A stretch of 32,000 nt of DNA from Longivirga aurantiaca (GCF_042660085.1 NZ_JBHSTI010000008.1:1569876-1601875); one strand, 5' to 3'. Counted from the stretch's first letter, positions 854 through 20,750 are shown. Program-made: numbers and translations. Notes: generated from the sequence alone by a model not told the origin.

Positions 854-2521
854 GTGACCGACCAGGGGACGACGACGAGCGCGCCGACCACCGACGCACC
901 TCGCACGAGCTGGGTGCCGATGCTGTTCATCGGCCTCGGCACGGCGATGTTCATCATGGACGCGACGATCGTCAACGTCTCGCTCCCGTCCATCATCCGC
1001 GACCTCGGGATCTCCTCGGTCGACGCCGAGTGGGTCAACGCGGTCTACGCGCTCGTCTTCGCGGCGCTCCTGATCATCGCCGGCCGGGTGGGGGACCGGG
1101 TCGGCCGTCGCCTGGTCTTCATCATCGGCGCCATCGTGTTCGGCGTCGCCAGCGTCATCGCCGCCCGCACCGGCGACGGCACGGCCCTCATCGCCGCCCG
1201 CGCGCTCCAGGGTGTCGGCGGCGCGATGATGTCGCCCGCCTCGCTGTCGCTGGTGAACTCGATCTACGTCGGCCGCGCGCGGCTGGTCGCGTTCGCGATC
1301 TACGGCTCGATCATCGGAGGCATGGCGGCGATCGGGCCGCTGCTCGGCGGCTGGCTCACCGAGAACCACTCCTGGCGCTGGGCGTTCTACATCAACGTCC
1401 CGATCGTCATCCTCATCGTCGTCGGGTCGCTGCTGAAGGTGCCGGAGAGCAAGGACGAGCACATCGAGAAGGGCTTCGACCTCCTCGGCGCGGCCCTGTC
1501 CGCCGTCGGCATCGGCGCCCTCGTCTTCGGCCTCATCGAGGGCCGCAACTACGGCTGGATCCGCACGACGCGCGAGATGACGTTCGCGAACATCACCATC
1601 CCCGAGGGCTCCATCTCGCCCGTGCTGTGGGCCTTCCTGGTCTCGCTCGTGGGCATCCTCCTGCTGCTCCTCGTCGAGAGCCGGCGCTCCCGCGCGGGAA
1701 AGGTCGTGCTCCTCGACCTCCGGCTCTTCCGCATCACGACCTTCAGCCTGGGCAGCTTCGCCGGCCTCATCGTGAGCCTGGGGGAGTTCGGGATCCTGTT
1801 CTCGCTCCCGCTCTTCCTGCAGAGCGTCCTCGGCTACACGGCCTTCGGAGCGGGCGCGATGCTCGCGACACTGGCGATCGGCGCGTTCCTCGCGGGTCCG
1901 ACGTCCGCGCAGATGGCGCAACGGCGGTCGCCGCGCTTCGTCGCCCGCCTCGGCATGGGGCTCGAGGCGATCGCCATCCTCGGGCTCGGGCTCACGCTGT
2001 CGACCACGGTCAGCAGCTGGGTGATCGCGTTCTGGCTCGTCGTGTACGGCGTCGGCGTGGGCTACGCGAGCGCACAGCTCACGAGCCTGATCCTCGCCGA
2101 CGTACCGCGGCGCCAGAGCGGCCAAGCCTCCGGCACGCAGAGCACCGCCCGGCAGATCGGCTCCGCCCTGGGCACGGCCGTGCTCGGCACCGTCCTGTTC
2201 GTGACGCTGTCCGCACAGACCGAGACCAACCTCGCGGCAGTGCCCGGTCTCGACGACACCCAGCGCCAGCAGATCGCCGACGTGGTCGAGCAGTCCGCGG
2301 GCACCGCGATCCCCGGTCTCGCCGAGCAGCCCGGGGGAGAGGCTGTCGCATCGGCGGCTGGCGAGGCGTTCGCGACGGCCATCAGCCTCACCGCCTACAC
2401 CGCGGCCGGCTTCGTCTTCCTCGGCCTGCTGGCCACCCTCGGCCTGCCCGCGAGCGGCGCGCGTCGCGAGGACGACGAACCCGACCCGCACGAGCCGGCG
2501 TCCGACACCGTGGCCGCCTGA
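854..2521 (+). CDS. MFS transporter, DHA2 (EmrB/QacA-like, 14-TMS) drug/H+ antiporter family
   Basis: 555 aa. The N-terminus LFIGLGTAMFIMDATIVNVSLPSIIRDLG and the motif GRVGDRVGRRLVF are typical of DHA2 MFS proteins. There are many hydrophobic segments and high GC3. Confidence 0.85.
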   Translation: MTDQGTTTSAPTTDAPRTSWVPMLFIGLGTAMFIMDATIVNVSLPSIIRDLGISSVDAEWVNAVYALVFAALLIIAGRVGDRVGRRLVFIIGAIVFGVASVIAARTGDGTALIAARALQGVGGAMMSPASLSLVNSIYVGRARLVAFAIYGSIIGGMAAIGPLLGGWLTENHSWRWAFYINVPIVILIVVGSLLKVPESKDEHIEKGFDLLGAALSAVGIGALVFGLIEGRNYGWIRTTREMTFANITIPEGSISPVLWAFLVSLVGILLLLLVESRRSRAGKVVLLDLRLFRITTFSLGSFAGLIVSLGEFGILFSLPLFLQSVLGYTAFGAGAMLATLAIGAFLAGPTSAQMAQRRSPRFVARLGMGLEAIAILGLGLTLSTTVSSWVIAFWLVVYGVGVGYASAQLTSLILADVPRRQSGQASGTQSTARQIGSALGTAVLGTVLFVTLSAQTETNLAAVPGLDDTQRQQIADVVEQSAGTAIPGLAEQPGGEAVASAAGEAFATAISLTAYTAAGFVFLGLLATLGLPASGARREDDEPDPHEPASDTVAA

Positions 2522-2536
2522 GCGAGCGCGCGCTGG

Positions 2537-2781
2537 GTGCCTCCACGCTCGGCGTCCGGGCTGGCGGCCCTGGCGCTGCGGACCCTCGTGCTGTGGGGCC
2601 CGTGGGTGCTCGCAGGGTTCGTCGCCAGCAGCTCGACCTCGAGCACCGCGCTGGTCGTGGCCGCCGTCGTGCTGTCGCCGCTGTGGATCGCGGTCGTCGT
2701 CGTGCTGACGCTGCGCGACACCGGACGTCGTGCGCCGCACGAACGCGCGTCCGGCACCCGGACCGTATGCGCGAGCCCTAG
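2537..2781 (+). pseudogene. RDD-family-like membrane protein fragment (C-terminal two TM segments only) with no in-frame stop
   Basis: High GC3 from 2537 to about 2770. The translation ends ...LRDTGRRAPHERASGTRTV, which resembles the C-terminal HDRLAGTxVV signature of RDD domains. The N-terminal part of the domain is absent. The frame then runs without a stop through the AT-rich island to 3268. A TAG (2779-2781) is available only after a 1-nt shift. Confidence 0.3.
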
Positions 2782-2833
2782 GAGAGGGGACGGTCCTTCT
2801 TCCGTGGGCCACCCGTCACGGGGCTCCGTTCGG

Positions 2834-2866
2834 ATTACATTACATAATGCTCATTATCGGATAATG
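2834..2866 (+). promoter_or_regulatory. AT-rich island with tandem ATTACATTACAT, the palindrome TTATC-G-GATAA, and a CATTAT -10-like hexamer 6 nt upstream of an ATG
   Basis: Sequence attacattacataatgctcattatcggataatg, in an otherwise very GC-rich context. CATTAT (2852-2857) is placed as expected for a leaderless or short-leader transcript starting at ATG 2864. Confidence 0.4.
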
Positions 2867-3257
2867 CCCAGGAGCACGGAGGGGCGCCGCGGTCGTCCAC
2901 TGCCTCGACGAGCACCGGGTCGCGGCGTTCTACGCCTCCCTGGGCGGGCTGCTGGAGGTCGAGTCGTCGGACGGCGACGTCGTGACCCTGGAGTCCGAGC
3001 ACCTGCAGGTGTCGTCCGTGCGCGTGCCGACGCATGCCGCCGCGGCGATCCCGCTGGCCGATCCGGTGGATCGACGCGCGGACACCCCGCTGAGGCTCGT
3101 GCTGCCGGGGCCGCACCTCGCGGCCGCCCGGGCCGCAGCCTCCGGCCTCGGAGGCTCCGCCGACCCCGTCGAGCGCCAGTGGCGCCGGCGCGGCGGACGG
3201 CGCGTGGACGCCGTCGACCCCGAACGGATCGTCGTCAGCCGGCGCGAGCCGCTCTGA
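2864..3257 (+). pseudogene. VOC/glyoxalase-like small protein, apparently frameshifted near the G-run at 2881-2884
   Basis: The high-GC3 frame (open from 2865; ...AAVVHCLDEHRVAAFYASLGGLLEVE...VDAVDPERIVVSRREPL) has no start codon until GTG 2982. ATG 2864 is in the neighbouring frame. Removing one G from GGGG (2881-2884) gives an intact ORF of about 130 aa, MPRSTEGAAVVHCLDEHRVAAFY... Confidence 0.4.
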
Positions 3258-3302
3258 GGGCGTCCTGACGAATCGAACGTAATCGAACACGGGGCAGGGG
3301 AG

Positions 3303-9971: not shown

Positions 9972-10382
9972 TCACCCGCGCTGCAGCAACGACAGAGGGA
10001 CCGGAGGGATGGTCTCGACCTTGCCGCGCAGGATCTTCACGAGCGAGAAGATCGACGTGTAGAGCCCCCAGGCGTACGCCGCGAGCACGACGGCCGAGAT
10101 GATCGTGCCGGGCAGGATCTTGCTGACCGACAGGTAGAAGCCGAGCACGAACAGCCCGGCGTACACGAGCTGCACCAGCAGCGAGAGCCGGAACCAGTGC
10201 AGGGCGAACGGCCGGTCGCGCAGGAACAGGCGGAGGAACAGCGGGCCGATCACCGGGGCCGGCCACATGCAGCCGGCGCAGGCGATGGCGAACGCCGTGT
10301 CGCCGCCGGTCGGGTGGGTCAGCCGGTCCTCCGGCGGTGCGTCCTCGGGCCAGGCCAGCGAGTCGTCGTGGTTGCTGCTCAC
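9972..10382 (-). CDS. Small integral membrane protein (136 aa), possibly DUF4870/Tic20-like
   Basis: The GTG start at 10382 overlaps the upstream stop (GTGA). The coding-like part runs VSSNHDDSLAWPEDAPP...GPLFLRLFLRDRPFALHWFRLSLLVQLVYAGLFVLGFYL... and has 3 predicted TM segments. The family assignment is tentative. Confidence 0.55.
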   Translation of the reverse strand: MSSNHDDSLAWPEDAPPEDRLTHPTGGDTAFAIACAGCMWPAPVIGPLFLRLFLRDRPFALHWFRLSLLVQLVYAGLFVLGFYLSVSKILPGTIISAVVLAAYAWGLYTSIFSLVKILRGKVETIPPVPLSLLQRG

Positions 10383-10825
10383 CCGCCCACCGTACGTGCT
10401 GCCCGGCTGCCGGCACTCGCGCAGGCCACCATCAGCGCCACGACGACGGGCACCATGAACAGCCCGACCGACAGGAGCGCGAGCACGGTGAACACTCCCA
10501 GCAGCGCCGTGAGCGCCCAGGCGCCGGCGCGCTGTCCCCTGCCCCCGACGCCTAGGAGGAGCCCCACGAGGAGCGTGACGGCGAGAGGGATGGCCAGGAC
10601 GAGCACCGCGGTCCAGCCGTTGACCTGCACCAGGGTCGCCGTCCCCGTGATCTCCTCCGTGCCGCCCGACCCGTCCACGGTGGCCGACGAGCTCGAGTAG
10701 CCGTAGAGCGGCAGAGTGAAGGCCGCGAGCACGAGCAGCACCGACCACACCAGCGCGAGCACGAGCGCGACCCGGGCGGTGAACGGGAGCGACCGCTCGC
10801 GCACGAGCGGCTGGGTGTCGGCCAT
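10379..10825 (-). CDS. Hypothetical integral membrane protein (148 aa, about 4 TM)
   Basis: ATG 10825 is preceded by GGAGGA 10 nt upstream. High GC3. Hydrophobic segments are separated by a Ser/Thr/Gly loop. It starts 39 nt after the kal-like stop. Confidence 0.55.
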   Translation of the reverse strand: MADTQPLVRERSLPFTARVALVLALVWSVLLVLAAFTLPLYGYSSSSATVDGSGGTEEITGTATLVQVNGWTAVLVLAIPLAVTLLVGLLLGVGGRGQRAGAWALTALLGVFTVLALLSVGLFMVPVVVALMVACASAGSRAARTVGG

Positions 10826-10864
10826 GCGCCGATGGTCCTCCGCTTCGTGCCCCGCGTCGAGGTG

Positions 10865-11260
10865 TCAGCCGGGGACGACGACCGTGCCGGTCGCCGTCGT
10901 CGCCACGATGGGCTCGTCGAGCACGGTGGCAGCCGACGCCGACACGGCCGGGGTCGCGCGGCAGACCACCCGCGCCTCGAACGCCACCGTGCGCGACCGG
11001 CGGCCGACACGCGTCACGGTGGCGGTGGCCTCGAGGACGTCGCCCCCCATGACCGGCGCATGGAACGTGACGACCTCGTAGGCGGCGAACAGGCCCTCGT
11101 CGCCGTCGGTGCGGATGCCCAGCTCGGTGGCGACGTCGCCGAACATGCCGAGCACGTAGGCGCCGTCGACGAGGTTGCCCCCGTAGTGCGCGTGCGAGTA
11201 GGGCACGTAGCGGCGGTGGGTCACGGAGACGCCGAGGCGCGGGTCGTCGGTCACGGTCAA
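10865..11260 (-). CDS. kal: Hotdog-fold protein resembling 3-aminobutyryl-CoA ammonia-lyase (Kal)
   Basis: About 131 aa. The motif [56 protein letters not shown] matches my recollection of the conserved Kal core ([10 protein letters not shown]...FGDVATEL...DGDEGLF). A TTG start at 11260 would overlap the kamE stop (TTGA); an alternative GTG lies at 11254. Confidence 0.6.
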
Positions 11261-12021
11261 CCAGCCTTCTTCCGGGTCGAGGGTGCGGGGACGAGCGACG
11301 ACACGAGGTACGAGGCGACCTCGCCCGGGGTCGTGCCCTTGCCGAAGATGCGGTCGACGCCGAGCTCGGCCGTCATCGACTCGTCGAAGCGCGGGCCGCC
11401 GACGACGAGCAGCGGCCGCTTGTCGCGCGGGAACGCCTCGCGGAAGGCGGCGCTCATCTCGCGGGTGTTGGTGAGGTGCGCGTCCCGCTGCGTGACCACC
11501 TGGGACACGAGCACGGCATCGGCCTTCGCGAGCCGCGACGCCTCGACGAGGTCGGGCACCGAGACCTGGGCGCCGAGGTTCACGACCGTGATCTCGGAGT
11601 AGTACTCGAGGCCCTTCTCGCCCGCGAAGCCCTTGATGTTGAGGATCGCGTCGATGCCCACGGTGTGCGCGTCGGTGCCGATGCACGCGCCCACCACGAC
11701 GAGCGGCCGGTGCAGTCCCTTCTTGATCGCGGCGTTGATCTCCTTGGGCGACAGCAACGGGTAGTCGCGCTCGACCACCTGCACCTCGCGCACGTCGACC
11801 AGGTGCTGCACCGCGCCGTACACGACGAAGAAGGTGAAGTCGGGCCCCATCGCCTTGGCGTGCACGACCATGGCCGGGTCCATGCCCATCTTCTTGGCGA
11901 GCAGCAGAGCGGCTCCCTCGGCACGCTTGTCGTGCGGCAGCGGCAGGGTGAAGGACATCTGCACCATGCCGTCGCCCGTGGTGTCGCCGTACGGACGCAC
12001 GATGTGCTTGCTCGCCCTCAT
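11257..12021 (-). CDS. kamE: Lysine 5,6-aminomutase beta subunit (B12/PLP-binding)
   Basis: 254 aa. [22 protein letters not shown]...FTFFVVYG...[27 protein letters not shown]...[12 protein letters not shown] is collinear with Clostridium sticklandii KamE, including the DxHxxG cobalamin motif (DAHTVG). The ATG overlaps the kamD stop (ATGA). Confidence 0.9.
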
Positions 12022-13613
12022 CGGGTCGCCCCCTCCTCGAGCAGGTCCGACGCCGGGTTCACGTAGTCGGGCGCCTTCCTCACCACGCCGTCGAGACCGC
12101 GTCCGGCGTCGGCCGGGCGCTTCATGAGCCCGAAGGTGCCGTCGGCGATCGCGTTGAGCAGCGTGTCGTCGACGATGTCGTCGAGGAGGTCGACCGCCTC
12201 GCCGAGCACCTGTCGGGCTCGTCGGGCGATGAAGCCGTCCGGCGCCGGGCGGAAGTCCTCGCGCAGGTTGCCGGCCGCGTTGAAGACGTAGCGCACGTTC
12301 TGGAGCGCGAGGTCGCGGTCGGACAGCCACGGGGTGACGACGGCCTCGGTCATCATGCCGACGAGCAGGATCCCCTGGCCGGTGAGCGCCCCGGCGAGGT
12401 TGAAGAAGCCGTCGAGCAGGTAGCCGCGGAAGACGTCGCCCGTCATGTGCTTGGTGGGCGGCATCCACTTGAGCGGGGCCTCGGGGAACAGCGCGCGGGC
12501 GAGCATCGCGTGCGCGAGCTCGAGCCGGAACGAGTCGGGGATCTCGGGCACGATCTCGAACGCGTGCCCGAGGCCGAGCTGCCAGTCCTGCAGCCCCGCC
12601 TCCTTGGCGAAGAACTCGTTGAGCAGCTGGCTCACGGTCACCGTGTGCGCGGCGTCCACGGCGTCGGCCGTCGTGAGGTAGTTGTCCTCGCCCGTGTTGA
12701 TGATGATGCCGGCGCGCGCGTGCACCTGGCGGCTGAACCTCTGGTCGACGAACGTGCGCACCGGGTTGATGTCGCGGAAGAGGATCCCGTACATCGAGTC
12801 GTTGAGCATCATGTCGAGCCGCTCGAGACCTGCGAGCGCTGCGATCTCGGGCATGCAGAGGCCGCTTGCGTAGTTCGTGAGGCGCACGTAGCGGCCGAGC
12901 TCCTTGCTCGTCTCGTCCAGCGCCGCGCGCATCAGCCGGAAGTTCGCCTGGGTCGCGTAGGTGCCGGCGTACCCCTCGCGGGTCGGGCCCTCGGGCACGT
13001 AGTCGAGCAACGACTGCCCGGTGGAACGGATCACCGCGATGACGTCCGCACCCTCGCGGGCCGCCGCCTGCGCCTGCGGCATGTCCTCGTAGATGTCGCC
13101 CGTGGCCACGATGAGGTAGATCCACGGCGAGGGCGGGTCTCCGTACGTGCCGATCATCCTGTCGCGGGCTGCGCGCTGGGCGTCGACCCGGCGGACGCCG
13201 GCCGCGATCTGCGCGCGGGCCTTGCGCGCGGCGGTGGAAGCGGCCTTCCCCTCCGGCAGGCGGAACTGCACCGAGCCGGCAGCGGCCTTCTGCGCCACCG
13301 TGAGCAGGTCGTCGCCGGTGCGGATCATGGCGTCCCACACGGGGATCGCGACACCGGTCTCGAGGCCGACCTGCTCGCGGACGACGTCGACGAGGCGGTT
13401 GACCCACGGGATGCCCTCGACGTCGGCGCCCTCGAGCCCTGCGAGGCGCAGGGTGGCACGCTCGACGGACACGGTGGTGTGCTGCTTGGCGAGCTTCACG
13501 ACCGGTGCGCCGGCCTTGCGCGCCAGCGACCGGGCCTTGCGGATGGTGACGGGATCGAGGTCGAGCATCCGCCTCGGGTCGTTGGCTGCTGTGACGTACG
13601 GACTGCGGCTCAC
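12018..13613 (-). CDS. kamD: Lysine 5,6-aminomutase alpha subunit
   Basis: 531 aa from GTG 13613. [20 protein letters not shown]...[68 protein letters not shown]...[14 protein letters not shown] is highly collinear with KamD of C. sticklandii. An alternative ATG (MLDLDP) lies 15 codons downstream. Confidence 0.9.
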
Positions 13614-15160
13614 GCCGCCACCTCCTCGAGTGCGCCGGCGTCGTGCAGCACCGAGCCGCGCAGCACTGTGCGCAGGCAGGTGGGCGTGAAGCCGGTGGTC
13701 AGGTCGGGCCAGCCGTGCTCGTCGGTCGTCGCGACGGCCCAGATCGCGTATGTCGCGGGCGCTCCGACGGCGATGACGCCGGACTCCCGGTCGCCGACCG
13801 AGTCGTGGCCCGCACGCGTGTGCGCGTCGAACGCGCTCGCGACATCGATCCGCTGCGACTCCGTGCGGTGCAGGACCGCGCCCCGCACACCGCCCCAGGG
13901 GTCGAACGGCGTGACCGGCGAGTCGCTGCCGAGCACGAGCGGCACCCCGGCGCGCTGCAGGTCGCCGTACGGGTTGAGGCCGGGGCCACGAGCGGGCCCG
14001 AGGCGGTCGACGTACATGCCGTCGGTGCCGCCCCAGAACGCGTCGAACGCGGGCTGCACCGAGGCGATGACCCCATGCTCGGCGAGGACGGCGACGGCCT
14101 CGCCGTCGCACATCTCGGCATGCTCGAGCCGGTGCCGCAGAGCTCGGACAGCGTCCCGCCCGACCGCTGCCGCGGCCGCCCGCAGGCCTGCCACGACGGC
14201 GTCCATCGCGCCGTCGCCGATCACGTGGAAGCCCGCCTGCACGCCCTCGCGCGAGCACTGCACCAGGTGGTCGGCGATGCTCGCCGCGTCGATGTAGAGG
14301 GCGCCGTGCGTGTGCTCGTCGTGGTACTCGGTGCGCAGGCAGGCCGTGCGCGAGCCGATCGCACCGTCGATGGACAGGTCGCCGGCCGCGCCGTGAGCGC
14401 CGAGTCGGCGCATGACGTCGAGGCCGCCCGTGGAGGCGAGCTGGCCCCAGTAGACGACGACCTCGGGGAGCGTCTCGGCGCGCGCGAGCGCGAGGAGCGA
14501 CGCGGCGTCGTCCTCCCCCGAGATGTCCGGCCCGGCCATCTCGTGCACGGCTGCGATCCCCTGCGCCGCAGCCGATCGCAGCGCGAGCCTCTGCACCTCG
14601 CTGGTCTGCGATCCGGTCACCGTGGCGAGCGCGGTGCCCCGGATCGCGTTGTGCGCCTCGCGGCGCACCCAGCCGTCCGCAGACCAGCCCTCGAGGCGCT
14701 CGGCCCCGGGGGTCGACGCCAGCATCGCGCCGCTGACCAGAGCCGAGTGGACATCGACGCGCGACAGGTAGACCAACGAGCCGTACGACGCGCGGTCGAG
14801 CTCGGACGCGGTCGGCAGCTCGCGGACGGGCCAGGTGGTCTCGTCCCAGCCGTGGCCGAGGATCGTGCGGCCGCGCAGCTGCTGCGTGCGGGCGGCGACG
14901 AGGTCGAGGAGGTCGGTCTTGGACCGCGCACCTGTGAGGTCGAGGCCGGCCAGCATGAGGCCGGTGTCGGTGGTGTGCACGTGACCGTCGACGAACGCAG
15001 GCATGAGGTGGGCGCCGTCGAGCTCGATGCGACGGTCGACCGCCGGCGCCGCGCCGCGCGAACCGATCCACGCTAGGACGCCGTCGCGGACGACCACGTC
15101 GAGGTCGCGAACCGCACCTTCGTGCAGCACCCGACCGCCCGCCAGGAGCGTGCTCGTCAC
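13610..15160 (-). CDS. Amidohydrolase-superfamily metal-dependent hydrolase (Amidohydro_3, YtcJ-like)
   Basis: 516 aa from GTG 15160. It has the N-terminal beta-sandwich plus the HxH motif (AFVDGHVHTTDTG), later GFHVIGDGA, RLEHAEM and LGSDSPV metal/catalytic motifs. Both ends overlap neighbours by GTGA. Confidence 0.8.
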   Translation of the reverse strand: MTSTLLAGGRVLHEGAVRDLDVVVRDGVLAWIGSRGAAPAVDRRIELDGAHLMPAFVDGHVHTTDTGLMLAGLDLTGARSKTDLLDLVAARTQQLRGRTILGHGWDETTWPVRELPTASELDRASYGSLVYLSRVDVHSALVSGAMLASTPGAERLEGWSADGWVRREAHNAIRGTALATVTGSQTSEVQRLALRSAAAQGIAAVHEMAGPDISGEDDAASLLALARAETLPEVVVYWGQLASTGGLDVMRRLGAHGAAGDLSIDGAIGSRTACLRTEYHDEHTHGALYIDAASIADHLVQCSREGVQAGFHVIGDGAMDAVVAGLRAAAAAVGRDAVRALRHRLEHAEMCDGEAVAVLAEHGVIASVQPAFDAFWGGTDGMYVDRLGPARGPGLNPYGDLQRAGVPLVLGSDSPVTPFDPWGGVRGAVLHRTESQRIDVASAFDAHTRAGHDSVGDRESGVIAVGAPATYAIWAVATTDEHGWPDLTTGFTPTCLRTVLRGSVLHDAGALEEVAA

Positions 15161-16233
15161 AGGTGACCCTCCGCCGCGAGCCGCTCGTTGAACAGGGTCT
15201 GGATCCCCGGCTCGGTCCGCAGCAGGTCGAACGCCATCTCGGCGTGACCCGGGGTGAAGCCGTTGCCGATCAGCATGGTCACGTCGGCGGCGAGGCCCTC
15301 CGCGCCGAGCGCCGCCGTGGCGAACGACGTCGCCATCGAGAAGAAGATGATCGTGCCGCCGTCGCCGCACGACAGGATCGCGCCGTGCTCGCAGCCGGGG
15401 ACGTCGACGCACACCACCACGACGTCGGCGACGTCGCCCAGCGCGTTCTCGATCGCGTCCGACAACCCGACCGGGTCGCGCGCGTCGGCGAGGGCCACGT
15501 TGTCGGCGAGGCCGAGCCGCTCGAGGGTCTCGGCCTCGCGCATCACCGGGACCACGCCGACCGTGCGGGCCGCACCGGCACGGCGGGCGGCAGCCAGGGA
15601 CAGCGAGCCGCTCTTGCCCGCTCCTCCGACGACGGCGACGGTCGGGGCCTTGCCGGCCTCGACGTAGCGGCGGACGACGCGGGCGGTGAGCGCCGGCGCG
15701 CCGCAGACGTCCATCACCATCATCGCCAGCCGGCCCGGCAGGTCCGTGGGCACCTTGGCGAGGATCGTGCGGTCGAACAGGATCGCGTGGCCGTCGCACG
15801 GGATCTGCTCGCCCGTGCCGTCCCAGTCGCGCAGGTCGTCGTCGATCTGCAGCGGGGTGAGCGTGAGCGACACGAGCGTGGTGATCTGGTCGCCGACGGA
15901 GATCTCGTGGTGGTGGCTCTGCGGCCCGACGGCCTCGACGACGCCGACGAGCATGCCGCCCGACCCGGTGACCGGGTTGTGCATCTTGCCGCGGGTCCGC
16001 ACGATCTCGAGCACCTCGGCGCGCACGGCGTCGCCGTCGCCGAAGTGCTTGTCGGACAGCTGCCGGAAGCTCGCGGCGTCGAGGTTGAGGCGCTGGACCC
16101 GGACGCGGATCTCCCCGGGGTGTAGGTCGGGGCTGGGGTCGAGGCGCCACGCAGCCTGCGGCAGCACGCCGCTCGGCTCGAGGACGCGGTGCAGACCGAC
16201 CGGGCTCACCGGATGACGGGGGCTCACGCGCAC
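15157..16233 (-). CDS. kdd: L-erythro-3,5-diaminohexanoate dehydrogenase
   Basis: About 358 aa. GLHRVLEPSGVLPQAAWRLD...IRVRVQRLNLDAASFRQL...KMHNPVTGSGGMLVG...VVGGAGKSG matches the Kdd N-terminal signature (HRVIEPKGSLPQ...) and the Rossmann motif. GTG starts at 16233 or 16227 are preceded by GGGAAGGA. The longer ORF reaching 16284 is Arg-rich. Confidence 0.85.
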   Translation of the reverse strand: MRVSPRHPVSPVGLHRVLEPSGVLPQAAWRLDPSPDLHPGEIRVRVQRLNLDAASFRQLSDKHFGDGDAVRAEVLEIVRTRGKMHNPVTGSGGMLVGVVEAVGPQSHHHEISVGDQITTLVSLTLTPLQIDDDLRDWDGTGEQIPCDGHAILFDRTILAKVPTDLPGRLAMMVMDVCGAPALTARVVRRYVEAGKAPTVAVVGGAGKSGSLSLAAARRAGAARTVGVVPVMREAETLERLGLADNVALADARDPVGLSDAIENALGDVADVVVVCVDVPGCEHGAILSCGDGGTIIFFSMATSFATAALGAEGLAADVTMLIGNGFTPGHAEMAFDLLRTEPGIQTLFNERLAAEGHL

Positions 16234-16450
16234 TGATCCTTCCCTGCGGCGACGCCGCTGTCTCGGGACGCGCCAGGAAGGCACTCCATGCCGGAAGTAA
16301 CGGGACGATCTCGCCCGTGATCACACTACGGGCGCAAATCCTTGCGTCGGATGATGCCAGATCCGGACGATGTCCCGTATCCTCGCGCCAGGATCACGCG
16401 CGTGTCCGGTCGACGGCCGGCCGCGCGTTCGCGACGCACCGGAGGATGAC

Positions 16451-17893
16451 GTGACCGAGACCCTCGCCAACGCCGTGGCCGCGGCGGACGGGCTCGCCCT
16501 GCCGCAGCCCTACGTCTACCGCCACAACCCTCTGGTCGAGCCCGACTGGCGCCGCTTCCCGGGATGGAAGGACGTCACGGACGACGAGTGGCGCTCCGCC
16601 CAGTGGCAGCGCAGCCACTGCGTGAAGAACGTCGCCCAGCTGCGCGGGGTGGTCGGCGACCTGCTCGACGAGCGGTTCTACGCCGACCTCGAGGCCGACA
16701 TCACCGATGCCGCCACGATGTCGATGCTCGTCCCGCCGCAGATGGTCAACACCATGGCGCCCACCGTGTCGCCCGCCGGCCCCGGCTCGCTCACCGAGGC
16801 GTGGTACGCCGACCCGGTGCGCCGCTACATGCTGCCGGTGCTGAGCGATCGGCGTACCGACTGGACGTCGCACCCGCACGCCACACGTGACTCGCTGCAC
16901 GAGCACGAGATGTGGGCGGTCGAGGGCCTCACGCACCGCTACCCCACCAAGGTGCTCGCCGAGCTGCTCACCACGTGCCCGCAGTACTGCGGCCACTGCA
17001 CGCGCATGGACCTCGTGGGCAACTCCACCCCGCAGGTCGAGAAGCTGAAGTTCGTCGCCAAGCCCGACACCCGCCTCGCCGACATGCTCGACTACCTGCG
17101 CCGCTCCCCCGGCGTGCGCGACGTGGTCGTCTCCGGCGGCGACGTCGCCAACATGCCGTGGGCGCGTCTCGAGCAGTTCGTCTCCGCCTTGCTCGAGATC
17201 GAGAACGTGCGCGACATCCGCCTGGCGTCCAAGGCGTTCGCGGCGCTTCCGCAGCACTGGCTGCAGGACGACGTCCGCGCCGGCATGGAGCGCGTGGCGA
17301 CGACCGCACGCAAGCGCGGGGTGGGCCTCGCCATCCACACGCACGTGAACTCCGCCAACACCGTCACGCCGCTCGTCGCCGAGGCGACGCGCGCGATGCT
17401 CGAGGTCGGCGTCCGCGACGTCCGCAACCAGGGCGTGCTCATGCGCGGGGTCAACGACTCCGTCGACAAGCTGCTCGACCTCTGCTTCGGCCTGCTCGAT
17501 GGCGCCGGGATCATGCCGTACTACTTCTACATGTGCGACATGATCCCCAACGCCGAGCACTGGCGGCTCGCGGTGTGGGAGGCACAGGCGCTGCAGCACG
17601 GGATCATGGGCTACCTGCCCGGGTTCGCGACGCCGCGCATCGTCTGCGACGTGCCGTACGTCGGCAAGCGCTGGGTCCACCAGGTGCACGAGTACGACCG
17701 CGAGCGCGGGATCACCTACTGGACGAAGAACTACCGCACCGGCATCGAAACCGCCGACTCGGCAGCCCTCGAGCGGACGTACGAGTACTACGACCCGATC
17801 CACACGCTGCCCGAGGCCGGCCAGGACTGGTGGCGCCTGCACGCGGCCGACTCGGTCGCCGCTGCCGACGCCAGCCGCGAGGTCCACTCCTGA
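16451..17893 (+). CDS. kamA: Lysine 2,3-aminomutase (radical SAM, KamA family)
   Basis: 480 aa from GTG 16451 (GGAGGA 4 nt upstream). The CPQYCGHC radical-SAM cluster motif is at 16976-16999, followed by VVSGGD, PYYFYMCD and VCDVPYVGK. Both acidic residues corresponding to the lysine epsilon-amino binding Asp residues of Clostridium LAM are retained (17537-17539 and 17648-17650). Confidence 0.9.
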   Translation: MTETLANAVAAADGLALPQPYVYRHNPLVEPDWRRFPGWKDVTDDEWRSAQWQRSHCVKNVAQLRGVVGDLLDERFYADLEADITDAATMSMLVPPQMVNTMAPTVSPAGPGSLTEAWYADPVRRYMLPVLSDRRTDWTSHPHATRDSLHEHEMWAVEGLTHRYPTKVLAELLTTCPQYCGHCTRMDLVGNSTPQVEKLKFVAKPDTRLADMLDYLRRSPGVRDVVVSGGDVANMPWARLEQFVSALLEIENVRDIRLASKAFAALPQHWLQDDVRAGMERVATTARKRGVGLAIHTHVNSANTVTPLVAEATRAMLEVGVRDVRNQGVLMRGVNDSVDKLLDLCFGLLDGAGIMPYYFYMCDMIPNAEHWRLAVWEAQALQHGIMGYLPGFATPRIVCDVPYVGKRWVHQVHEYDRERGITYWTKNYRTGIETADSAALERTYEYYDPIHTLPEAGQDWWRLHAADSVAAADASREVHS

Positions 17894-17897
17894 CCCA

Positions 17898-17951
17898 CCG
17901 ATTCGGTAGTGCAAACTCGCGCTCTACTGCGACTTTCCACTACCGAATCGG
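17898..17951. repeat. Hairpin repeat copy A: perfect 14-bp stem (ccgattcggtagtg / cactaccgaatcgg) with a 26-nt loop
   Basis: Read directly. It starts 5 nt after the kamA stop. The stop codon and last codons of the convergent DUF559 gene lie inside it. It is homologous to copy B (34/40 identical over the loop plus right arm). Confidence 0.75.
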
Positions 17952-18889
17952 GCTTCCGCGGCTGTCCTGATCCGCGCGAACTGGGAGACGATCCTGACCT
18001 CGTCGCAGACGAGCACCTGGGCCGGCACATGCAGCACCTGATGTCCGAGCGCCACGGCGGCCGCGTCCTTCGCGAGGTCGGCGGCGCGGCGGGCGGGATC
18101 GTCGTGCGTGGGCCCGTCGACCTCGATGAGCAGCAGTGAGCCGTCGGGCAGATCGACCGCCAGGTCGTAGCGGCGTACGCCTTCGGGCGTCTGTAGAACG
18201 TGCTGACGACGGAAGGACGTGAGGCCCGCACGACGCAGCAGCGCGCCGACGGTCACCTCGGTCAACGCGTCGGCGCCGTCCGCCGCGTGCTCAGCCGCTT
18301 CCCGGATCGTGTCGACGAAGCGCACCTTCGTCAGTCGCGCGAGGCAGTCCACAACACCCTCTGGCGTGACGATGCCCTGCTGGACCGCGGCGAGGACGAG
18401 ACCCGCCGCGCGCCTTCGACCACGTTGCCGCGAGGCGGCATCGATCGTGGCGCGCGCGGTGGTCACGCAAGCAAGGCCTCCGACCGTGGTGAGGTCGATC
18501 GTGTCGAGATGGCGTGTGTGGTGGACCCGGACACCTGGGAGCGGTGATACCACCACGCCGTGCGGGACGAGGATCTCGACGTCCGCGGTACTCCAGCGGG
18601 TGAAGCCTCTCAGCTCGAGAGCAGTCAGGGCATCGAGCGCCGCGCGCTCACCGGCATGGAGCAGCGCTGCGTGCCCCATCTGCTCGACGGAGAGCGCTCC
18701 GGTCATGAGTGCCAGGACTCGCGGACCGACCGGCTGCCATCGCTGGGCCCTGACCTGGCTGCGAGCATGATCATGGCTCACACCCAATGCCAGCAGCTGG
18801 TCCCGATGAACGAGCCCGGCTTGTGACTCGGCGAGCTCGAGGAGCCCAGGGACAAGGGCGAGTGGCTGAGTACGACCCGTCATGGGCAC
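17924..18889 (-). CDS. DUF559 (Vsr-like endonuclease fold) domain protein with an AbiEi_4-like N-terminal domain
   Basis: 321 aa. The N-terminus ...GLVHRDQLLALGVSHDHARSQVRAQRWQPVGPRV..., the C-terminus ...FRRQHVLQTPEGVRRYDLAVDLPDGSLLLIEVDGPTHDDPARRAADLAKDAAAVALGHQVLHV, and the overall architecture are typical of the multi-copy actinobacterial DUF559 family. Confidence 0.7.
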   Translation of the reverse strand: MPMTGRTQPLALVPGLLELAESQAGLVHRDQLLALGVSHDHARSQVRAQRWQPVGPRVLALMTGALSVEQMGHAALLHAGERAALDALTALELRGFTRWSTADVEILVPHGVVVSPLPGVRVHHTRHLDTIDLTTVGGLACVTTARATIDAASRQRGRRRAAGLVLAAVQQGIVTPEGVVDCLARLTKVRFVDTIREAAEHAADGADALTEVTVGALLRRAGLTSFRRQHVLQTPEGVRRYDLAVDLPDGSLLLIEVDGPTHDDPARRAADLAKDAAAVALGHQVLHVPAQVLVCDEVRIVSQFARIRTAAEARFGSGKSQ

Positions 18890-18970: not shown

Positions 18971-19024
18971 CCGACTTGGTGGTGGAATCTCGCGCTCTGC
19001 TGCGACTTCCCACTACCAAATCAG
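18971..19024. repeat. Hairpin repeat copy B, in the same orientation as copy A
   Basis: ccgacttggtggtgg-aatctcgcgctctgctgcgacttc-ccactaccaaatcag. The core stem is 10 bp including one G-T (G-U) pair, with a 24-nt loop. Its minus-strand 5' end contains the lrp stop codon TGA. Confidence 0.75.
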
Positions 19025-19461
19025 AGGGCGGGCGGGCGGTTCTCGTACGGCGTGGAGAGTACGACGCTCGTGCGCGTGGAGACGTTGGCCTTGGCGCGGA
19101 TCTCAGCCAGCAGCAGCTCGAGGTCGGCGGGGCTGCCCACCCGCACCTTGAGCACGTACGACTCGTCACCCGCGACCGAGTGGCAGGCCTCGATGGCGCT
19201 GACAGCCTCGAGCCGATGCGGCGCGTCGTCCGGCGCAGCGGGGTCGATGGGCTTGATCGAGATGAGGGCGGTGAGCGGGAGCCCGAGCTGGTCGTGGTCG
19301 ACCACGATCGTGTAGCCCTTGATGACCCCGCGCTGCTCGAGGCGGCGAACCCGCTGGTGGACGGCGGACGTCGAGAGCCCCGTGGCCTTGCCGAGGTCGG
19401 TGTACGACATGCGGCCGTCGCCCGCCAGCAGGCGCACGATCGCCTGGTCGATCTCCTCCAC
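19021..19461 (-). CDS. Lrp/AsnC family transcriptional regulator
   Basis: VEEIDQAIVRLLAGDGRMSYTDLGKATGLSTSAVHQRVRRLEQRGVIKGYTIVVD... gives the HTH_AsnC domain, followed by a RAM/AsnC_trans_reg C-terminal domain. I prefer the GTG start at 19461; the ORF extends to ATG 19512. Confidence 0.8.
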   Translation of the reverse strand: MEEIDQAIVRLLAGDGRMSYTDLGKATGLSTSAVHQRVRRLEQRGVIKGYTIVVDHDQLGLPLTALISIKPIDPAAPDDAPHRLEAVSAIEACHSVAGDESYVLKVRVGSPADLELLLAEIRAKANVSTRTSVVLSTPYENRPPAL

Positions 19462-19592
19462 GAACGCACAGCCCTTCGTCCCGACCGGCCCGCACGACCG
19501 GATCTCCGGCACAACCTACCGAGAGGCGCACGGATGTCCCGCCCGATACCCGGATCGTGACCACTACCGGCGGGTAGCGAGAGGGGCCCGCC

Positions 19593-20750
19593 TCAGGAGG
19601 TGAGCGACCGCCCGATGACCATGCGCTGGACCTGGTTGGTGCCCTCGACGATCTGCAGCACCTTGGCCTCGCGCATGTAGCGCTCGACCGGGAAGTCCTC
19701 GACGTAGCCGTAGCCCCCGAACACCTGCACGGCATCCGTCGTCACCTTCATGGCGACGTCGGTCGCGAAGAGCTTGGCCTTGGCCGCCTCGACCGAGAAC
19801 GGCATTCCGCGGTCCTTGCGACGCGCGGCCTCGAGCACGAGCGCGCGGGCGGCCGACACCTGCGTCGCCATGTCGGCGAGCATGAACGCGATCCCCTGGA
19901 ACTCGCCGATGGCCCGGCCGAACTGGCGCCGCTCCTTCGCGTACGCCGAGGCCGCGTCGACCGCGGCCTGCGCGAGCCCGACGGCGCACGCGGCGATGCC
20001 GAGGCGGCCGGAGTCGAGCGCGGCGAGCGCGATCTTGAAGCCCTGGCCCTCCACGCCGACCAGCTGCGACGCCGGCACCCTCGCGGAGTCGAGCAGCACC
20101 TGCGCGGTGCGCGACGCCTTGGCACCCATCTTGCGCTCGGGCGGCGCGCTGGACAGACCGGCCGTGTCGGCCGACGCGACGAGGCAGGAGATGCCGCGGG
20201 CGCCGTCGTCCGAGGTGCGCACCATGAGGTTGTAGAAGTCCGCCACTCCCCCGTGCGTGATCCACGCCTTGGTCCCGTCGACGACGTAGTCGTCGCCGTC
20301 GCGCACCGCTCGGGTCACGAGCGCGGCGGCGTCCGAGCCCGACGACGGCTCCGACAGGCAGTAGGCACCGAGCTGGTCGCCGCCGAGCATGCCCGGCAGC
20401 CACCGCGCCTTCTGCTCGTCGGTGCCGTACTCCGCCACCGGGAAGCAGGCGAGCGAGTGCACCGACACCGAGATCGCGACCGACAGCCAGGCGCCGGCGA
20501 GCTCCTCGAGCACCTGCAGGTAGACCTCGTACGGCTGGCCTCCGCCACCGATCTCCTCGGCGTACGGCAGCGACAGCAGCCCTGCGGCACCGAGCACCCG
20601 CAGCTCGTCGCGGAAGAACGTGCCGTCGTGCTCGTACTGCGCCACCTTCGGTGCGAGCTCGGCGTCGGCGATCTCGCGGACGAGGTCGAGCAGCGCGACC
20701 GACTCCTCCGTCGGGAGCATGCGGGACGCCGGCGTCACGGACAGCGCCAT
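19593..20750 (-). CDS. Acyl-CoA dehydrogenase (short-chain/butyryl-CoA dehydrogenase-like)
   Basis: 385 aa with ...GAYCLSEPSSGSDAAAL...GTKAWITHGG...QFGRAIGEFQGIAFMLADMA...VQVFGGYGYVEDFPVERYMREAKVLQIVEGTNQVQR, the canonical ACAD motifs including the C-terminal catalytic Glu context. Confidence 0.9.
   Translation of the reverse strand: MALSVTPASRMLPTEESVALLDLVREIADAELAPKVAQYEHDGTFFRDELRVLGAAGLLSLPYAEEIGGGGQPYEVYLQVLEELAGAWLSVAISVSVHSLACFPVAEYGTDEQKARWLPGMLGGDQLGAYCLSEPSSGSDAAALVTRAVRDGDDYVVDGTKAWITHGGVADFYNLMVRTSDDGARGISCLVASADTAGLSSAPPERKMGAKASRTAQVLLDSARVPASQLVGVEGQGFKIALAALDSGRLGIAACAVGLAQAAVDAASAYAKERRQFGRAIGEFQGIAFMLADMATQVSAARALVLEAARRKDRGMPFSVEAAKAKLFATDVAMKVTTDAVQVFGGYGYVEDFPVERYMREAKVLQIVEGTNQVQRMVIGRSLTS

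Follow-up and report, generated by a model that had tools for sequence, protein, structure and literature searches.

A conserved actinobacterial kamA/kdd-kamDE-kal cluster without kce, a putative operon for lysine catabolism

The degradation of lysine through beta-lysine and 3,5-diaminohexanoate is usually regarded as a butyrate-forming fermentation of anaerobes, and the closest described gene clusters are those of Fusobacterium, Acetoanaerobium (Clostridium) sticklandii and Porphyromonas, in which kamA, kamDE, kdd, kce, kal, atoAD and bcd-etf occur together. The only variant of the pathway found in our literature search replaces kal rather than kce: in Candidatus Cloacimonas, a 3-aminobutyryl-coenzyme A (CoA) aminotransferase (Kat) takes the place of Kal, and kce is kept (Perret et al. 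2011, PMC3149608). A study that reported ‘several members of Actinobacteria’ to have the lysine pathway tolerated the absence of one gene from each pathway (Vital et al. 2014, PMC3994512); it is compatible with the cluster considered here, which it does not describe, and the search yielded no description of an actinobacterial or aerobic 3,5-diaminohexanoate route. The present analysis concerns a stretch of 32,000 nucleotides (nt) from Longivirga aurantiaca (GCF_042660085.1, NZ_JBHSTI010000008.1:1569876-1601875), referred to as the window, which encodes homologues of KamA, KamD, KamE, Kdd and Kal, all common to the anaerobe cluster, and no Kce.

Genes in the window, which has a GC content of ~72%, were called by third-codon-position GC (GC3) frame analysis together with hidden Markov model (HMM) scans against Pfam and NCBIfam. 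These calls agree exactly with the coordinates (9972-17893) and gene list of a first-pass annotation, in which kamA on the plus strand is divergent from a minus-strand run of kdd, an amidohydrolase gene, kamD, kamE, kal and two genes for small membrane proteins (Table 1). The extent given there is too narrow only in that a gene for an Lrp-family regulator and one for an acyl-CoA dehydrogenase lie just outside it (19021-20750). Every junction from kdd to kal, four in all, is a 4-nt overlap of start and stop codon (GTGA, GTGA, ATGA and TTGA), which indicates a translationally coupled operon.

With respect to gene identity, KamD (NF052384, 707 bits, cutoff 600), KamE (NF052385, 347 bits, cutoff 280), Kdd (NF052381, 258 bits, cutoff 200) and Kal (NF052388, 188 bits, cutoff 160) all pass the equivalog cutoffs of their families and share 42-58% identity with their anaerobe counterparts, with Kdd at ~42% and Kal at ~58% against canonical clusters. 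In addition, KamD matches PDB entry 8T0V (E = 9e-165), KamE contains the PF16554 and PF02310 domains, and the KDD_N domain (PF26370) is present in orthologues of Kdd. The assignment of the hotdog protein as Kal-like, on which the first-pass reading depended, is borne out at the level of sequence both by the equivalog score and by its nearest PDB entry, the hotdog-fold beta-alanyl-CoA ammonia lyase 4MTU (E = 1e-20). A search for homologues of this protein returned only close relatives (81-95% identity).

The gene for 3-keto-5-aminohexanoate (KAH) cleavage, kce, is absent from the cluster. No BKACE-family protein (PF05853) and no CoA-transferase was found among the called genes of the window in the Pfam and NCBIfam scans. 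As a direct test, 80 anaerobe-type kamD loci (layout kal-kce-kdd-kamA-...-kamDE-(atoDA)) were fetched for comparison, and HMMs were built from their 35 Kce, 17 AtoD and 18 AtoA sequences. With filters off, these models produced no match (best E = 1.2) in the window or in 90 related actinobacterial loci (1.69 Mb; ~10 kb either side of each match), all translated stop to stop in six frames. This agrees with the initial observation that no frame of the window encodes Kce or AtoAD. The anaerobe-type loci provide the measure for this result: kce is present in 35 of the 46 that hold both kdd and kamD, abuts kdd in 34 of these 35, and accompanies kal in 24 of 25 cases. Clustering of all called proteins from the related loci likewise revealed no further conserved enzyme able to replace Kce. 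The frequent extra families were backbone genes, recognized by eye as phosphodiesterase, MurA-like, diacylglycerol kinase and DUF559 proteins, and some loci also encoded a mutase reactivase of the MutL type or an M20 peptidase. Two candidates for a hidden kce were rejected, namely the open reading frame (ORF) at 17924-18889, which has no Pfam match and a DUF559-like translation, and a protein cluster of ~270 residues (cluster 14), which by eye resembles a glycerophosphodiester phosphodiesterase and was negative everywhere in the six-frame Kce search.

This layout is not local to the window. An alignment of KamD scanned against one genome per species gave at least 599 matches, and the best 80, which were taken for comparison, all derive from Actinomycetota and all have the same cluster core. 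Carriers include Kribbella, Nocardioides, Marmoricola, Terrabacter, Phycicoccus, Ornithinimicrobium, Catellatospora, Paractinoplanes, Hamadaea, Lentzea and many metagenome-assembled genomes (MAGs), and homologues of the amidohydrolase (52-93% identity), every one of which lies in the same gene context, add Carbonactinospora thermoautotrophica, Vallicoccus soli and freshwater ‘Nanopelagicales’ MAGs among others. Kribbella, Nocardioides, Catellatospora, Lentzea and Carbonactinospora are cultured genera known as aerobes. The block Lrp-kamA / kdd-(amidohydrolase)-kamD-kamE-kal occupies a fixed slot between helY/5'-3' exonuclease and lnt/ppm1/rbpA in the best 80 species genomes and in all six contexts reached through the amidohydrolase homologues, and kal is retained in nearly all of the actinobacterial loci. 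The closest relative of the window among the matches listed is MAG MFD02832.bin.1.159, with a KamD 97% identical. The comparison of neighbourhoods that the first-pass annotation had proposed thus shows a kce-less cluster that is lineage-wide and conserved in position, and that exists in two forms, with and without the amidohydrolase.

Overall, the actinobacterial cluster differs from that of the anaerobes in several respects. It lacks kce, atoAD and etf in cis, and most loci also lack the two reactivase-like genes found between kamA and kamD in the anaerobe cluster, whereas an Lrp regulator and the amidohydrolase are additions. The gene order kdd-(amidohydrolase)-kamDE-kal, divergent from kamA, contrasts with kal-kce-kdd-kamA-...-kamDE in anaerobes. 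As in the Kat variant, one canonical gene is missing in a lineage-specific manner; here, however, kal is kept and kce is the missing gene.

The amidohydrolase is the one enzyme of the operon with no counterpart in the canonical pathway, and it is a candidate for a non-orthologous replacement of Kce, acting on KAH either by Claisen-type exchange with acetyl-CoA or by hydrolysis. Its gene overlaps kdd on one side and kamD on the other at the stop and start codons, and occupies this place between them in every amidohydrolase-positive locus; its subfamily occurs only in this operon among the loci examined. The enzyme also resembles Kce in being metal-dependent and of the (beta/alpha)8 type. The protein scores 229 bits against PF07969, its AlphaFold2 model (predicted local distance difference test score 96) is a (beta/alpha)8 barrel, and the best structural matches are the uncharacterized proteins 3ICJ and 3IGH (Foldseek E 2e-29, template-modelling score ~0.7), followed by generic C-N hydrolases. 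As in these YtcJ-type amidohydrolases (COG1574/PF07969), the fold is accompanied by HxH, His, His and Asp metal ligands, here His60, His62, His312, His347 and Asp413, which are invariant in 53 sequences. The enzyme is set apart from 3ICJ and 3IGH by an identity of only 22-24%, by its operon-specific context and by an invariant Asp261 at the position of the bridging lysine from strand 4, which is carboxylated in these Pyrococcus homologues. The unusual aspartate and the want of a characterized close relative also count in favour of such a replacement, which would define a new branch independent of Kce.

Nonetheless, the distribution of the amidohydrolase makes this replacement quite improbable. 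Among 75 loci with sufficient upstream sequence to judge, the gene is present in 48 and absent from 27; in most of these 27, the stop of kdd directly adjoins the start of kamD, and none of kamA, kdd, kamDE and kal is missing. The two states interleave on the KamD tree with at least 13 independent changes; one locus (L067) lacks the amidohydrolase although its KamD is 90% identical to that of the window. A search of the kdd-kamD gaps in amidohydrolase-minus loci turned up no remnants of the gene, so loss and gain are indistinguishable from sequence. Since it is missing from more than a third of otherwise intact clusters through repeated gain or loss, the amidohydrolase is unlikely to substitute for Kce, and the first-pass description of a kce-less, amidohydrolase-containing layout covers one of two layouts. 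Fold and ligands are also those of classical C-N hydrolases, a profile comparison with Kce (hhalign) gave a probability of 0.1% and hence no detectable relationship, and we know of no member of the amidohydrolase superfamily that carries out a CoA-dependent C-C exchange. The observed distribution fits an enzyme that is tied to the operon and dispensable, not the sole provider of an essential step. Our guess is that it acts as a C-N hydrolase on an amide related to the pathway, either to salvage it or to feed it in, candidate substrates being the delta-lactam of 3,5-diaminohexanoate or of KAH, or an N-acylated lysine or beta-lysine.

Hydrolase genes were also seen near lysine-pathway genes elsewhere. 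In one anaerobe-type cluster (L113, 652-3511), an M20 peptidase gene and a gene for a distant YtcJ-type amidohydrolase, 21% identical to that of the window, lie directly upstream of kal-kce-kdd, and an M20 peptidase gene follows kal in actinobacterial loci L006 and L067. Hydrolases may be recurrently associated with the pathway.

KamA is the most divergent of the pathway enzymes. It reaches none of the NCBIfam cutoffs (TIGR00238, 150 bits against 199; TIGR03820, 149 bits against 525) and is ~28% identical to KamA of canonical clusters. Together with the absence of Kce, Ato and Etf and the presence of an amidohydrolase of unassigned role, this divergence could mean that the cluster does not lead from lysine to crotonyl-CoA at all and that it serves to make or degrade some other beta-amino compound, such as an osmolyte or a building block of a natural product; the proteins resembling Kal and KamA would then act on other substrates. 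Several observations render such a role rather remote. Specifically, alignment with 2A5H, the Clostridium subterminale enzyme, shows that the CxxxCxxC motif, Arg134, Asp293 and Asp330 are kept, as is the lysine of the pyridoxal 5'-phosphate (PLP) site with an offset of one residue. Asp293 and Asp330 bind the epsilon-amino group of lysine in 2A5H, and their conservation suggests that KamA is probably a divergent lysine 2,3-aminomutase. The equivalog scores of KamD, KamE, Kdd and Kal, as well as a setting among housekeeping genes with an Lrp-type regulator rather than among biosynthetic genes, also speak against a different product.

On balance, we lean towards the view that this is a catabolic operon, conserved in Actinobacteria, for the conversion of L-lysine to crotonyl-CoA via beta-lysine, with the cleavage step provided from outside the cluster. 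KamA, a radical S-adenosylmethionine (SAM) and PLP enzyme, would form beta-lysine, the B12- and PLP-dependent KamDE would shift the 6-amino group to give 3,5-diaminohexanoate, and Kdd would oxidize this to KAH. Cleavage of KAH to 3-aminobutyryl-CoA would follow, a step for which the cluster has no gene, and Kal would then deaminate the product to crotonyl-CoA, which could enter ordinary beta-oxidation. The chemistry up to KAH and from 3-aminobutyryl-CoA onwards is presumably the same as in anaerobes; the direction of flux, like the part assigned to the regulator, is a reading of gene content. That nearly all actinobacterial loci have kept kal implies formation of a beta-aminoacyl-CoA, and that kal is kept where no enzyme for handling CoA is encoded in cis gives the strongest indication that a Kce-like, CoA-transferring cleavage still takes place. 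The source of this activity most probably lies in trans and would be either an unlinked paralogue of the BKACE family or a general 3-oxoacid CoA-transferase and a thiolase acting on KAH. The choice posed by the first-pass annotation, namely kce encoded elsewhere or an undescribed route, was the right framing, and its interpretation is supported in part, the absence of kce being real. Of that choice, an undescribed route independent of Kce appears unlikely. In one form of it, to which we would likewise give rather little credence, Actinomycetota would take lysine to acetyl-CoA without Kce, the amidohydrolase helping to process KAH or its lactam; were this so, it would amount to a new enzyme activity and a new branch of the pathway, with other enzymes covering the step in amidohydrolase-minus lineages.

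The unlinked source of cleavage activity was considered in light of Kce-like genes elsewhere. A Kce profile run against 1.84 billion representative proteins retrieved 566 at E <= 1e-30, GC-rich ones among them, and PGAP-annotated BKACE paralogues are widespread, one being on a Streptomyces plasmid. Such paralogues are known from Actinomycetota as well as from further GC-rich hosts, which counts in favour of a source in trans. Four high-scoring GC-rich representatives had readable context: two are directly linked to kal, as a kdd-kce-kal trio in L171 and as a kal-kce pair in L173, the third is a paralogue whose context is unrelated, and the fourth stands as an orphan. None of these four was assignable to Actinomycetota, and no actinobacterial replicon with kamD was found in PLSDB.

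The same material supplies part of the case against the catabolic operon with cleavage in trans. With two of four placed GC-rich genes adjacent to kal, an unlinked true Kce would be unusual. No thiolase or CoA-transferase gene is linked to the cluster in any of the 90 loci, the restriction of the amidohydrolase to this operon hints at a role more integral than ‘accessory’, and the substrate of KamA is read from few residues on account of its low identity and sub-cutoff scores. In a further reading, no BKACE enzyme would be involved; a 3-oxoacid CoA-transferase or ligase of general metabolism would activate KAH and a thiolase would split 3-keto-5-aminohexanoyl-CoA into acetyl-CoA and 3-aminobutyryl-CoA, the amidohydrolase serving to reopen the delta-lactam to which the activated 5-amino acid is prone. 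Actinomycetota are rich in beta-oxidation enzymes, a short-chain acyl-CoA dehydrogenase is linked to the cluster in one subset of loci, lactam salvage suits an operon-tied, dispensable amidohydrolase, and Kal is kept in a cluster that nevertheless has no CoA-handling enzyme. We consider this a doubtful solution, as the argument is purely chemical, the missing linkage of thiolase and transferase genes also tells against it, and to our knowledge thiolases acting on 5-amino-3-oxoacyl-CoA have not been described.

Two further arrangements of Kce-like genes came to light in these searches. Two GC-rich metagenome contigs (L171, 9240-11277; L172, 8964-10998) carry a stand-alone trio of kdd (~254 residues), kce and kal behind a TetR gene and an amino-acid ATP-binding cassette transporter; kamA and kamDE are absent from the surrounding 10 kb. 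This trio may be a module for the direct use of 3,5-diaminohexanoate; it shares Kdd and Kal with the window and is otherwise its reverse, having kce and lacking kamA and kamDE. A GC-rich, 434-residue KAL-KCE fusion (P0386, from the representative library) is consistent with NF052389 and with a normally tight coupling of kal and kce.

Taken together, a route usually associated with anaerobes is represented by a trimmed, Lrp-linked version that is fixed at a single chromosomal position in many Actinomycetota from soil and fresh water, cultured genera among them. Provided that it functions as proposed, it would lead from lysine to acetyl-CoA with no oxygen-dependent enzyme, while needing radical SAM and B12 enzymes. 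The cluster also points to an orphan enzyme, the operon-linked amidohydrolase, and to a missing activity, the cleavage of KAH. Because kce is systematically absent, pathway calls that tolerate one missing gene (Vital et al. 2014) score carriers as lysine fermenters or butyrate producers, probably wrongly.

With respect to expression, the likely start of kamA is the GTG at 16451, which gives 480 residues, as in the orthologues, and is preceded by a GGAGGA motif; an alternative ATG at 16370 would give 507. In an alignment of the kamA/kdd intergenic region from eight relatives, the imperfect palindrome GCGCAA-ATCC-TTGCGT (16332-16347) is conserved; it is a candidate operator at which the neighbouring Lrp-family protein might bind. 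The region contains no Rfam family or riboswitch and no sigma-70 consensus promoter. No meaningful terminator was found either. The Lrp gene lies beside kamA in 56 of the 75 loci judged, and its product is likely the regulator of the cluster, probably controlling the divergent promoters.

Table 1. Features of the cluster and its immediate neighbours in the window
Feature	Coordinates	Strand	Evidence
Small multi-pass membrane protein, 136 aa	9972-10382	-	hydropathy
Small multi-pass membrane protein, 148 aa, 3-4 hydrophobic segments	10379-10825	-	hydropathy
kal, predicted 3-aminobutyryl-CoA ammonia-lyase	10865-11260	-	NF052388, PDB 4MTU
kamE, lysine 5,6-aminomutase beta (B12-binding) subunit	11257-12021	-	NF052385, PF16554 + PF02310
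kamD, alpha subunit of lysine 5,6-aminomutase	12018-13613	-	NF052384, PDB 8T0V
YtcJ-type metal-dependent amidohydrolase, 516 aa	13610-15160	-	PF07969
kdd, L-erythro-3,5-diaminohexanoate dehydrogenase	15157-16233	-	NF052381
kamA/kdd divergent control region (putative)	16234-16450	intergenic	palindrome in alignment of 8 relatives
kamA, KamA-family radical SAM/PLP aminomutase	16451-17893 (alternative start 16370)	+	TIGR00238, TIGR03820 scores + 2A5H alignment
ORF, 321 aa, DUF559/AbiEi-like by eye	17924-18889	-	no Pfam match; lower GC3 than neighbours
Lrp/AsnC-family regulator	19021-19512	-	PF13404 + PF01037
Short-chain-type acyl-CoA dehydrogenase	19593-20750	-	four acyl-CoA dehydrogenase Pfam domains; below all NCBIfam equivalog cutoffs

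The remaining genes around the cluster are variable or belong to the chromosomal backbone. The two small membrane proteins have no Pfam or NCBIfam match; among the loci compared, the longer is encoded only in L001, L004 and L056, and the shorter is confined to the closest relatives, with a weak MamF_MmsF match in the orthologue from L004. Both are variable accessory genes. Linkage of the acyl-CoA dehydrogenase to the cluster is limited to 12 of the 75 loci, a subset made up of Nanopelagicales-like and Carbonactinospora loci, and no Etf genes accompany it. The DUF559-like ORF is inserted between the Lrp gene and kamA, is absent from L006, L007 and L009, where the two abut, and is not part of the pathway; an unrelated DUF559-like ORF is found at the same spot in some Nocardioides loci. 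The cluster is flanked by actinobacterial backbone genes, on one side those for RbpA, FxsA, a Ppm1-like glycosyltransferase family 2 (GT2) protein, Lnt and TsaC, and on the other those for Lrp/AsnC, the acyl-CoA dehydrogenase, a PepE/PepQ-like M24 peptidase, a 5'-3' exonuclease, HelY, diacylglycerol kinase and TatC/TatA.

Individual loci show further variation. A MutL-type (PF13941) mutase-reactivase-like gene follows kal in L007/L008 (14358-15866) and in seven other loci; those concerned are Carbonactinospora loci and a number of further amidohydrolase-positive ones. In the window no such gene, which might serve to reactivate KamDE, is present. In L056 (8446-11592), a long-read MAG and the closest relative among the loci compared, the amidohydrolase and KamD are in broken pieces, probably through assembly indels and not as pseudogenes. 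In a second MAG (L010, 11600-19100), kamD is split in two fragments, and ~6 kb of foreign genes (an extracytoplasmic function sigma factor, an acyltransferase and an ORF of 824 residues) lie between the amidohydrolase gene and the first of them; the cluster appears inactivated. Far from the cluster, the window begins with a partial plus-strand ORF (1-801) containing a copper type II monooxygenase C-terminal domain, and the interval 2521-3300, between two major facilitator superfamily transporter genes, holds only weak small ORFs.

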